Shown in pieces: positions 19,672 through 21,579 of a stretch of 64,000 nt of DNA. The stretch spans positions 1,211 to 65,210 of the forward strand of contig JAKFCD010000083.1 in assembly GCA_036676805.1 (NCBI GenBank), given 5' to 3'. How positions within the stretch are numbered: position 1 is the stretch's first letter; every line of letters begins with the position of its first letter. A program made the translations under genes and the position numbers. The notes under the pieces were generated by a model, which was not told the origin of the DNA, made no database searches, and saw only the letters and a list, made by a program, of their open reading frames with translations. The stretch is from Elusimicrobiota bacterium. Its GTDB lineage: Bacteria > Elusimicrobiota > Elusimicrobia > UBA1565 > UBA9628.

Positions 19672-21061
19672 AACGGCGGAGCTCGGCCAGTTGGGCGCCG
19701 GTGGCGAAGGTGACGCGCTCGAGGGAGAGGGTGCGGCCTTGGTCGACGACGACGCACGGGCCCAGGCCGGGAAGATCCTTGTCATCGATGACGCCCGGGT
19801 ACGGAGGCATGCCTCGGTAATCCATGCCGCCGGCCTCGGAGGCGACGAGAAGGTGGCGGCGCTCGGGAAGGTAATAGACGCGCAGGGGCAGGTAGTAGTA
19901 CTTGCCCAGGTGCACGACGGGCACGCTCGCGTCCGAGGAGCGGCGGATCACCGCGGCCAGAGCGTCTAGGCGGGGATCGACCAGGACGGCGGAAGCGAAA
20001 TAGCCGACGCAGCCCGCGACGACGACGCCGCCGGCGACGGCCCGGGTCCCGGTCCGGCGCGCTCCCAAGGCCGCGAGCAGGATCAGCAGCGGCGAGAGCG
20101 GCGTGAAGTAGCGGGCCTGGGTGACCGGCCGCCCGCTCCACAGTTCGACGGCGGCGACGAGGGCGAGAGCGGCGGCGACATGAACGAGGCAGAAGCCGAA
20201 GGCCCGGCGCTCGGGAGAGCCTTCCGCGGAGGAGAGCGCGTCCCGCCCGGCCGACGCGGCCAGCGCGGCGAAGCCGGCGCCGACGGCGATCCCGCTCCAC
20301 GCCGGCAAGGCCAGGCCGAGGAAGGTGACGTCGAAGAACGTCGTGCCGAGCAGATCCAGAACACGAGGGAAGCTCAGAGCCTCGCCCACGACGGCGTCGC
20401 CGACGTGCGCGCGCGCCTGGGCGGCCAGCGACGGCAGCCACGGAGCGAAGGCCAGCGCGGCGGCCGCGTGCGAGAGCAGGAAGGCGGGCCGGTCCTTCGA
20501 CCTGCGCGCGAGCCAAACCGCGTGGCCCGCGAGCAGGATCGCGTAGTAGTAATGCGTGTAGAGGCCGAAGGTGGCCAGGGCGGCGTAGGCGGCCCACAGC
20601 CGGGCGCGGGGCTTCTCCCCGCTCAGCGCGAGCGTCGCGATCGTCGAGAGCAGGCTGATCAGCAGCAGGAGCGAATACGCCCGTCCGTCCTGAGCGACGT
20701 GGATCCAGAAGGAGGAGGCGGCGGCCAACAAGAGCGCCGGCAGGCGCGCGCTCTCGGGAAGGAGACGGCCGGCGAGGGAGCGCAGCGCGAACAGCGAGCC
20801 TATGCCGCACAGCGCGGAGAACAGGCGCAGGCCCTCGCGCGGGTCCGCGAACGGCCCCAGCCAGAAATGCATCAGCGCGTAATACAGCGGAGGGTTGACC
20901 TCGTTGCTCACCAGCAAGGGGGCGAGCTCGGCCAGCGGCCGTCCGGCGAGCAGCATGGTGCTCGCCTCGTCGAACCAAACGGACTTGGCCCCGAGCAGAA
21001 GCAGCCGCAGCGCCGCCCCGGCCAGGATCGCCGCCGCCGCCCATTTCTCCAGCCTGGTCAT
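19670..21061 (-). CDS. GT-C glycosyltransferase (family 39/PMT/ArnT-like)
   Basis: SVWFDE, NPPLYYALMHFW, QDGRAYSL, YTHYY, many TM helices; start moved to MTRLEKW. Confidence 0.88.
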   Translation of the reverse strand: MTRLEKWAAAAILAGAALRLLLLGAKSVWFDEASTMLLAGRPLAELAPLLVSNEVNPPLYYALMHFWLGPFADPREGLRLFSALCGIGSLFALRSLAGRLLPESARLPALLLAAASSFWIHVAQDGRAYSLLLLISLLSTIATLALSGEKPRARLWAAYAALATFGLYTHYYYAILLAGHAVWLARRSKDRPAFLLSHAAAALAFAPWLPSLAAQARAHVGDAVVGEALSFPRVLDLLGTTFFDVTFLGLALPAWSGIAVGAGFAALAASAGRDALSSAEGSPERRAFGFCLVHVAAALALVAAVELWSGRPVTQARYFTPLSPLLILLAALGARRTGTRAVAGGVVVAGCVGYFASAVLVDPRLDALAAVIRRSSDASVPVVHLGKYYYLPLRVYYLPERRHLLVASEAGGMDYRGMPPYPGVIDDKDLPGLGPCVVVDQGRTLSLERVTFATGAQLAELRR

Positions 21062-21161
21062 GGGCGTATTGTAGCGGTATCGAGGTTGGCCTTTACAGGG
21101 CGCTCCCCCATGGATAGGATGGGTGCTCAAGGCCCGCAGTTCGGCCCCGGAGGACTATCAT

Positions 21162-21356
21162 ATGGCGAAGAAGATGGAGCCGCTCGTGATCGCGAGCAAG
21201 GCGAAGGCGATCTTGAAGAAGGCCGGCTGCAACACCTCGGGCGACGCGCTCGAGGGGCTCAACGGGATCGTGTATTACTACCTCGATCAGGCGGCCAAGC
21301 GCGCGAAGGCGAACGGGCGCAAGACCGTCCGCGTTCACGACTTCCACATCGGCTAG
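21162..21356 (+). CDS. Bacterial histone-fold protein (Bd0055/HMf-like singlet), 64 aa
   Basis: LVIASKAKAILKKAGCNTSGDALEGL...AAKRAKANGRKTVRVHD with the histone RxTxxxxD motif; SD GGAGG upstream, hairpin downstream. Confidence 0.9.
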   Translation: MAKKMEPLVIASKAKAILKKAGCNTSGDALEGLNGIVYYYLDQAAKRAKANGRKTVRVHDFHIG

Positions 21357-21374
21357 CCGCGGCGGAAAGACGAA

Positions 21375-21415
21375 GCGCCCGGGAGGTTTTTATCGCCCCC
21401 GGGCGCCTGTCTTTC
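21375..21415. terminator. Hairpin between the histone gene and a convergent small ORF
   Basis: GCGCCCGGG...CCCGGGCGC stem followed by CTGTCTTT. Confidence 0.6.
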
Positions 21416-21429
21416 GGTGGGACCGAAAA

Positions 21430-21579
21430 TCAGGGCTTGCGCCGGTCCTCGGCGCGCCGGGCGTCGTCCTGGGCCTTTCGCAGGGTGTCGACGATCCGGT
21501 GGGCGGTGTCGTGCACCCAGCGGCTCTTGAGGAGCCTGCGGGGGTTGATCGTCACCTTGGCGCATAGCGCGAGCTTCAT
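21430..21579 (-). CDS. 49-aa small basic protein not in the ORF track
   Basis: MKLALCAKVTINPRRLLKSRWVHDTAHRIVDTLRKAQDDARRAEDRRKP; TATACT 6 nt before ATG; strong GC3 bias. Confidence 0.6.
   Translation of the reverse strand: MKLALCAKVTINPRRLLKSRWVHDTAHRIVDTLRKAQDDARRAEDRRKP

Follow-up and report, generated by a model that had tools for sequence, protein, structure and literature searches.

A short HLp-type histone, probably an accessory FtF nucleoid protein, in an Elusimicrobiota bacterium

The histone locus

The window (the whole 64,000-nucleotide stretch of an Elusimicrobiota contig that we analyzed) contains a solitary short gene for a histone-fold protein. The gene and the features around it are:

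21162..21356 (including the stop codon), + strand: coding sequence of a 64-aa alpha3-truncated histone, probably of the HLp-type face-to-face (FtF) class (from the sequence, its homologues, and a model)
21149-21154, + strand: Shine-Dalgarno sequence GGAGGA, 7 nt 5' of the ATG
21092-21120, + strand: promoter-like TTTACA-17-TAGGAT, 9 of 12 matches to the consensus
21362-21418, not assigned to a strand: GC-rich hairpin between the histone gene and a convergent small ORF (−40.2 kcal/mol, z = −3.3)
21430-21579, − strand: convergent 49-aa ORF (MKLALCAKVTINPRRLLKSRWVHDTAH...), recognized as an ORF and by its conservation

The reading frame runs from the ATG at 21162 to the TAG at 21354-21356 (64 codons plus the stop). 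The residues of the product include 9 Lys, 3 Arg, 3 Asp, and 2 Glu, for a net charge of +7 and a pI of 9.87. The initial annotation, made from the sequence alone, had the coordinates of this 64-aa basic protein exactly right, and the strong Shine-Dalgarno sequence that it described is there as well; GGAGG or AGGAG is present at the same place in 12 of 13 aligned relatives. We rejected a longer frame from the GTG at 21123: the Shine-Dalgarno sequence suits the ATG only, and nearly all of the 120 close homologues start with MAKK or an equivalent (a few have longer called starts).

A promoter scan of the region gave 2 sites, versus 0.2 expected. Both hexamers of the site at 21092-21120 (TTTACA and TA[G/C]GAT) are conserved in 9 of 13 aligned upstream regions, irrespective of the upstream gene, and we infer that this site is the promoter of the histone gene. 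The upstream neighbor encodes a 486-aa PMT_2-type glycosyltransferase on the opposite strand; its likely start (ATG at 21061) leaves a spacer of 100 nt, within which the promoter-like site lies. The proposal that the histone gene is monocistronic fits this arrangement, as the gene stands alone, with a promoter-like site of its own and with the upstream gene on the other strand. The neighbors at the locus are genes for aspartokinase, an RNase T-like exonuclease, the PMT_2 glycosyltransferase, ProC, and RNase D, with the convergent 49-aa ORF and then proC and the RNase D gene lying beyond the 3' hairpin. The GC content of the histone gene is 62-65%, against a background of 63-77%, and its base composition carries no foreign signature. 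The DNA stretch was found in sequencing runs from more than one study. There were no RNA runs among the 20 runs that contain all or part of it, and the source organism is known from metagenome assemblies alone.

In the leader (21121-21161), and at the same place in 11 relatives, there is a short GC-rich inverted repeat (GCCCCGAAGGGGC-like) just 5' of the Shine-Dalgarno sequence. A 5' UTR hairpin, which we also considered, is not supported: each relative has a CCCC..GGGG repeat, but the consensus fold has 3 pairs, with a two-sided change in 1 of them.

The downstream hairpin, which lies between the histone gene and the convergent ORF, is likely a two-way terminator. (A terminator scan did not call the hairpin at 21362-21418, whose loop is too long and which has no T run.) Its core, GCGCCCG..CGGGCGC, also occurs in 3 of 4 aligned histone-less congeners, so the hairpin is a feature of the locus and of the convergent ORF and is not specific to the histone. 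The initial annotation was right that a hairpin follows the gene. The 49-aa ORF has a promoter-like site of its own (ATGACA-17-TATACT at 21614-21586, 10 of 12 matches) and is conserved at the protein level in 15 related loci. It had no matches in Pfam or NCBIfam. Because it is kept in histone-less congeners (4 of the 5 that we examined), we consider it part of the locus and not of the histone.

An alpha3-truncated histone fold

A word-indexed search found 624 homologues of the protein at E ≤ 1e-3, and a full scan found 321 cluster representatives at the same threshold. The best 120 of the 624 are 73-98% identical to it, and the pattern R..N.R.T....D is present in 120 of 120. When phmmer was run against the PDB, the closest protein was HLp of Leptospira perolatii (9qt0, E = 3.6e-12), followed by HBb, also known as Bd0055, of Bdellovibrio bacteriovorus (8cmp, E = 1.5e-5, and 8fvx, E = 1.7e-5) and by the archaeal HTkC (9f2c, E = 0.074). 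A profile from an alignment of 76 homologues (A1) gave the same order, with E-values of 2.3e-25 for HLp, 6.5e-18 for HBb, and 1.2e-14 for HTkC. The profile had weaker matches to the Methanococcales histone HmvA (4.8e-7), to HMfA (about 6e-4; the HMfA/HMfB matches extend to 0.012), and to NF-YB (about 0.008). The nearest characterized relative is HLp.

The initial annotation had staked its reading partly on the predicted structure, and the AlphaFold2 model made with A1 (pLDDT 92.4) is a histone fold. The three-helix spacing that had been read off the sequence reappears in the model as helices at residues 11-20, 27-50, and 58-60, with alpha3 cut to one turn. In Foldseek comparisons, the model was most like HLp (TMt 0.94, rmsd 0.7 Å, 48-49% identity over 55-56 aligned columns), and it was also like HBb (TMt 0.87-0.91, TMq 0.86, rmsd 1.0-1.1 Å, 37% identity) and HTkC (TMt 0.88-0.89, 28-29% identity). 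No large gaps were needed to superpose it on HLp or HBb. Archaeal nucleosomal and eukaryotic histones overall had TM-scores of about 0.5-0.7, and for HMfA/B these were 0.54-0.60 (rmsd 2.7-3.1 Å). The C-terminal RxTxxxxD motif that was noted earlier is R53-K-T55-V-R-V-H-D60, or the RD clamp. Across the 76 homologues of A1, T55 and D60 are invariant and R53, R47, and N51 are at least 90% conserved.

The curated family models behave differently. A Pfam scan of the protein returned no family at E ≤ 10, PF09123 included. A search with CBFD_NFYB_HMF (PF00808, gathering threshold 21.4 bits), which had been suggested as a check, gave no match at E ≤ 10 either on the protein or in the whole genome. The NCBIfam model archaea_histone (NF043032) aligned to residues 13-60 with 17.3 bits (E = 0.0049), which is below its 50-bit cut-off. 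As these models do not reach alpha3-truncated histones, their failure is no evidence against a histone fold. We also rejected a DUF1931 pseudodimeric histone, because the chain is one fold of 64 aa and does not match PF09123. ("DUF1931 domain-containing protein", which appears on PDB entry 9qt0, is the depositors' label.) In short, the gene is real and its product is an alpha3-truncated histone fold. The initial call of a bacterial histone stands: the sequence matches, the predicted fold, and the conserved RD clamp agree on it.

Assignment to the FtF class

According to Schwab 2024, alpha3 histones fall mainly into the FtF class and the "bacterial dimers" (HBb-like). In that scheme, an alpha3-truncated histone has an alpha3 of 3-4 residues and a shortened alpha2, and the FtF class is recognized by a predicted closed tetramer together with conserved R48 and N52, which the "bacterial dimers" (including HBb) do not have. 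The structure of the FtF histone HLp has been solved (PDB 9QT0/9QT1/9QT2), and the authors list R49, N53, and R55 among its conserved tetramer residues (Hu et al., 2025, PMC12701072). The window protein aligns to HLp without gaps, and we verified the offset between chain numbering and the numbering in the paper on R55, D62, and N53. R49, N53, R55, and F63 of HLp correspond to R47, N51, R53, and F61 of the window protein. Of the 6 tetramer-interface residues of HLp, 4 are identical and 2 differ (A50 in place of S52 and H59 in place of T61). The residues of HLp that contact DNA in two complexes are A13, S14, K15, K17, K21, T27, G29, T56, and T57 (Hu et al., 2025, PMC12701072). Their counterparts are A11, S12, K13, K15, K19, T25, G27, K54, and T55, and 8 of these 9 are identical, the exception being Thr to Lys at position 54.

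We also modeled four copies of the protein together. The ipSAE was 0.87 (0.87, 0.87, and 0.88 in individual runs), versus 0.45 for the best control; the partner pLDDT was at least 89, and the runs shared at least 94% of their contacts. (In the calibration of the modeling tool, which used two copies and not four, 20 of the 30 proteins solved as pairs and 1 of the 23 solved as single chains reached the mark.) One neighbor of the scored copy is joined to it by a full handshake. The scored copy also has a second interface, with another copy, at residues 43, 46-47, 50-51, 57, 59-60, and 62-63, which is the dimer-dimer region of HLp. As a like complex (9QT0) has already been solved, this result shows likeness to HLp and may be memory. 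The predicted tetramer interface includes the 3-residue C-terminal HIG tail, which is absent from HLp, and with the changes at A50 and H59 this implies that the geometry or stability of the tetramer could differ from that of HLp.

Two features had been proposed to affect oligomerization. First, the His in the L2/alpha3 region is H59 (T61 in HLp), and the proposal fits the model, as residues 59-60 lie in the predicted dimer-dimer contact. Second, the YYY run (residues 38-40) is real and lies where the alpha2 helices of the handshake dimer cross, with Y40 at the place of L42 of HLp and V37 at the place of L39. It is outside the dimer-dimer contact. The aromatic patch at this place is YYY in a minority of relatives: the commonest form among the best 120 homologues is YWY, and most congeners have WAYWLL. 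The window protein and those of its congeners differ at 8 positions, 5 of which are within residues 35-42.

The initial annotation had called the protein Bd0055-type. We instead assign it to the HLp type, because it is nearer to HLp in sequence (E = 3.6e-12 versus 1.5e-5) and because it keeps R47 and N51. A strict dimer of the Bd0055/HBb type, which would bend DNA or coat it edge-on and would never form a tetramer, seems to us rather improbable. Such a dimer would account for the clear match to HBb (E = 1.5e-5, TMq 0.86, 37% identity), and the four-copy model could be no more than memory of 9QT0. It would also agree with the survey of Schwab 2024, in which Elusimicrobiota appear under dimer-type and IHF-type histones and are absent from the list of main FtF phyla. 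On the other hand, HLp is a better match than HBb by seven orders of magnitude in E-value, and also by TM-score. Furthermore, R47 and N51 are both present and are nearly invariant in the family, while the dimer types lack both (Schwab 2024), and the same genome has a separate gene of the dimer class, on another contig (C46), with Lys and Glu at those positions and with HBb as its best match in the PDB.

Overall, we put the probability at roughly 75% that the protein is an FtF histone of the HLp/HTkC class, with a probably accessory role beside HU and a dimer-type histone. Given the conserved residues and the model for the tetramer, and the analogy to HLp for wrapping, the protein is most likely a DNA-wrapping tetramer.

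A dimer-type histone and HU in the same genome

The assembly (4.0 Mb in 139 contigs, 98% complete) contains exactly two histone-fold genes that are detectable with the protein or with A1. The second of these is:

Contig C46, L002:1501-1680, − strand: dimer-type (HBb-like) histone of 60 aa, 37% identical to the window protein

We rejected a third histone, as the candidates on contigs C10 (E = 0.696) and C134 (E = 0.289) are noise. The best PDB match of the paralogue on C46 is HBb (E = 2e-7). In the paralogue and its 20 orthologues, the place of N51 is taken by Glu, Asp, or Gln in 21 of 21 sequences and the place of R47 by Lys in 18 of 21, and by these sequence characters the paralogue is a dimer-type histone. 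The genome also has one HU gene.

Just 11 nt 3' of the second histone gene, on the same strand, is a gene for a 332-aa protein of the Methyltransf_28 family (PF02636, E = 2.8e-36; the pair occupies L002:491-1680, − strand). The PDB relatives of the methyltransferase are DUF185/COG1565 proteins and a "protein arginine methyltransferase NDUFAF7 homolog" (5ztz, E = 2e-7; for NDUFAF7, see PMC3829151). Of the 21 loci that we examined, 12 have the pair. It occurs in 6 of 7 loci from the genus, 4 of 6 from other genera of the family, 2 of 3 from the order, and 0 of 5 beyond the order. The identity of the methyltransferase drops to 46-53% while it still adjoins the histone gene. The histone itself has a single Arg (R21). 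This NDUFAF7/MidA-family (protein arginine) methyltransferase is a candidate for a bacterial histone-modifying enzyme. Divergent from the histone gene on C46 is a LuxR-type response regulator (Response_reg plus GerE; L002:1941-2624, + strand). In 13 of the 21 loci, a regulator of this kind (85-100% identical) is close to the histone gene, always on the side opposite the methyltransferase.

Presence and absence in the genus

We surveyed 38 genomes of the genus, including that of the window. The FtF gene (83-100% identical) was found in 20 of the 38 and not found in the other 18, of which 13 are at least 90% complete. When completeness of at least 90% and contamination of at most 5% are required, 21 genomes remain, and 8 of them have the gene. 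A weaker match (29-40% identity), which we take to be the dimer-type paralogue, is present in 35 of the 38 genomes, and HU is present in 20 of the 21 genus genomes that were sampled for it. With 18 of the 38 genomes lacking the FtF gene, its product is more plausibly an accessory nucleoid protein than the main one, and a central role in chromatin is less likely. The earlier proposal that this organism has a histone-based chromatin is therefore not supported; its genome also encodes HU and a second histone.

In 3 of the 4 histone-bearing congeners that we examined, the genes for aspartokinase, the exonuclease, the histone, the small ORF, and ProC are kept and PMT_2 is variable. (The fourth, G291, has retained only the exonuclease side of the locus.) In all 5 of the histone-less congeners that we examined, out of 18, the aspartokinase-exonuclease-proC locus is there without the histone. 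The small ORF is present in 4 of these 5, as is the RNase D gene within the fetched stretch. Because the hairpin is present in 3 of the 4 aligned non-bearers, the variable piece is the promoter, the leader, and the ORF, or about 290 bp. ProC of the bearers is 89-90% identical to that of the window, versus 82-87% for non-bearers, a pattern consistent with a single gain or a single loss within the genus.

One histone-less genome, G263, has kept about 100 nt between the exonuclease gene and the hairpin (L097:2552-2752). This stretch begins with CCGGAGAATAC, which resembles CCGGAGGATAC, the Shine-Dalgarno sequence of the histone gene in congeners; the alignment is poor. Possibly a histone gene was deleted here and this is what is left of it; if so, loss would be favored over gain.

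Relatives beyond the genus

In a sample of 301 genomes from the phylum, at least 13 had a match with at least 51% identity, and 12 of these 13 also had a weaker second match. At least another 45 had a weak match only. These figures are lower bounds, because dimer-type histones are poorly detected with this query. Among less closely related Elusimicrobiota, the FtF gene has different neighbors.

With one genome per species in GTDB, at least 58 loci encode a relative. By labeled group, the matches listed are from Elusimicrobiota (21), Bdellovibrionota (15), Myxococcota (14), Planctomycetota (2), Nitrospiria (1), Solirubrobacterales (1), unplaced bacteria (2), and Archaea (2). Among the named records in these matches, those most similar to the window protein are from Elusimicrobia/Elusimicrobiota. 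The bacterial relatives listed are 65-92% identical to it, aside from a 20-residue fragment at L073 (100%), and this is unusually high between phyla. We built a tree with 69 rows and 65 columns, from which L069 (masked bases) and the fragment at L073 were dropped. In the tree, proteins from the same genus are identical to proteins that are labeled Elusimicrobia/Elusimicrobiota. The phylum labels require 9 changes, versus a minimum of 5 and a mean of 26.3 for shuffled labels, and 29 of 58 inner branches are unresolved. Because of those branches, and because metagenomic bins can carry foreign contigs, the tree does not discriminate between transfer and extreme constraint. To look for a phage origin, we searched viral contigs with the protein, which turned up 60 pattern matches and no confirmed relatives.

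A bolder reading of this distribution is that the FtF histone is an optional cassette (promoter, Shine-Dalgarno sequence, and 64 codons) that is gained, lost, and possibly exchanged among Elusimicrobiota, Myxococcota, and Bdellovibrionota, over a core chromatin of HU and dimer-type histone. We offer this tentatively, as we think that it is probably not the case. If it were true, the DNA would be bent but not wrapped in some species of a genus and both bent and wrapped in their sister species.

Two other kinds of relatives were seen. First, the best-scoring cluster representatives (P0122-P0134, P0141-P0144, and others) are proteins of 117-132 aa with two tandem alpha3 folds and an NGRKT..D loop in each copy. 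Their Pfam matches are mostly sub-threshold (PF00808, DUF1931, CENP-X, and DUF7463). Judging by their sequences, they look like fused FtF-type doublets that are distinct from classical DUF1931. Second, the single-fold relatives P0137, P0138, P0188, P0235, and P0167 have Lys/Ala-rich N-terminal tails of 25-40 residues, and one tailed relative has a weak HC2 (histone H1-like) match (E = 6e-4). At the sequence level, these resemble tailed bacterial histones.

Proposed mode of action

We propose that two chains would first join head to tail, via alpha1 and alpha2, in a handshake dimer, and that two dimers would then close into a tetramer via the end of alpha2, L2, and the one-turn alpha3. Both steps are suggested by the residues and the model. 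The tetramer contacts would be made by R47, A50, N51, R53, H59, F61, and the C-terminal HIG. By analogy with HLp, a ring of mostly Lys, Ser, and Thr residues (A11, S12, K13, K15, K19, T25, G27, K54, and T55) would bind the DNA backbone regardless of sequence, and the tetramer would wrap roughly 60 bp and give an irregular, nucleosome-like protection. In solution, HLp forms tetramers, and it wraps about 60 bp of DNA and protects 35-72 bp from MNase; its authors leave DNA bridging possible as well (Hu et al., 2025, PMC12701072). In the cell, the window protein would be expressed from its own promoter and strong Shine-Dalgarno sequence, beside core HU and the dimer-type histone. Given its distribution, its role here is probably that of an accessory nucleoid protein.

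Another possibility is that the protein has a histone fold but does not organize the nucleoid, acting instead as a local regulator or as an adaptor that binds other proteins; such roles have been suggested for certain divergent histone-fold proteins of prokaryotes. Schwab 2024 cautions that not all "histones" are necessarily global organizers, and the FtF gene is dispensable in the genus (it is in 20 of 38 genomes), where HU and another histone are available in the window's genome. We consider this improbable because of the net charge of +7 and the retention of 8 of 9 DNA-contact residues of HLp, and because the 65-92% identity across phyla is as expected if the whole surface is constrained; the strong Shine-Dalgarno sequence and the promoter-like site of its own also argue against it. 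Finally, the ORF is very short and curated family models do not accept its product, but a chance ORF or an assembly artifact is hardly credible given 624 homologues, 321 cluster representatives, a conserved start, Shine-Dalgarno sequence, and promoter, a confident fold, and the recovery of the stretch in runs from more than one study.

To our knowledge, HBb and HLp are the only bacterial histones that have been characterized so far, and they differ in how they bind DNA. If the window protein is an accessory FtF histone as we propose, then this genome would be a natural system with wrapping and bending histones side by side, in a phylum with few cultured members. Also, close relatives would differ by the wrapping histone alone, at one locus, and comparing them might show how a bacterial nucleoid changes when it includes a tetrameric histone.

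Histones in Elusimicrobia have been noted already, for their "phylogenetic persistence" (Hocher et al., 2023, PMC10627809). The FtF class was defined by Schwab 2024, and bacterial members of the class are described there and by Hu et al., 2025 (PMC12701072). One supplementary file of Schwab 2024 has no "Elusimicrobi" entry. Our search of the literature, with the taxon figures of Schwab 2024 outside its scope, found no paper on an FtF histone from Elusimicrobiota or on its pattern of presence and absence. What is new here is the corrected subclass, the co-occurrence of both histone types with HU, and a presence/absence polymorphism at one locus.

Comparison with known systems

The archaeal histones HMfA and HMfB share the histone fold, the RxTxxxxD motif, and the RD clamp with the window protein. 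In HMfA and HMfB, alpha2 is longer and alpha3 is full. They assemble via a four-helix bundle into hypernucleosomes instead of closing face to face as a tetramer (Hu et al., 2025, PMC12701072). HTkC from Thermococcus kodakarensis (9F2C) is closer, in that it is of the FtF class and has a truncated alpha3, but it is archaeal and only 28-29% identical. Archaeal FtF histones form a separate sequence cluster (Hu et al., 2025, PMC12701072).

HBb/Bd0055 from Bdellovibrio bacteriovorus (8CMP and 8FVX; Hocher et al., 2023, PMC10627809) is also an alpha3-truncated singlet, with an RKTV loop and an S-K motif at the start of alpha1. However, HBb is a strict dimer without the Arg and Asn of the tetramer (Schwab 2024), while the window protein has both.

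HLp is the most similar. Both proteins have 63-64 aa, a one-turn alpha3, the R/N/R tetramer residues, and the RD clamp, and they share 8 of 9 DNA contacts. Unlike HLp, the window protein has A50, H59, the C-terminal HIG, and the YYY patch in alpha2, as well as a Cys at position 23 in L1, which is common in its own clade. The gene neighborhood of HLp in Leptospira (SMC, MAP, and DUF350; Hu et al., 2025, PMC12701072) is not seen around the window gene. Lastly, the two proteins come from different phyla and would work in different company. Hu et al., 2025 (PMC12701072) report that Leptospira has no HU and no second histone and that the HLp homologue of L. interrogans is essential and very abundant, while the genome of the window encodes both HU and a second histone.
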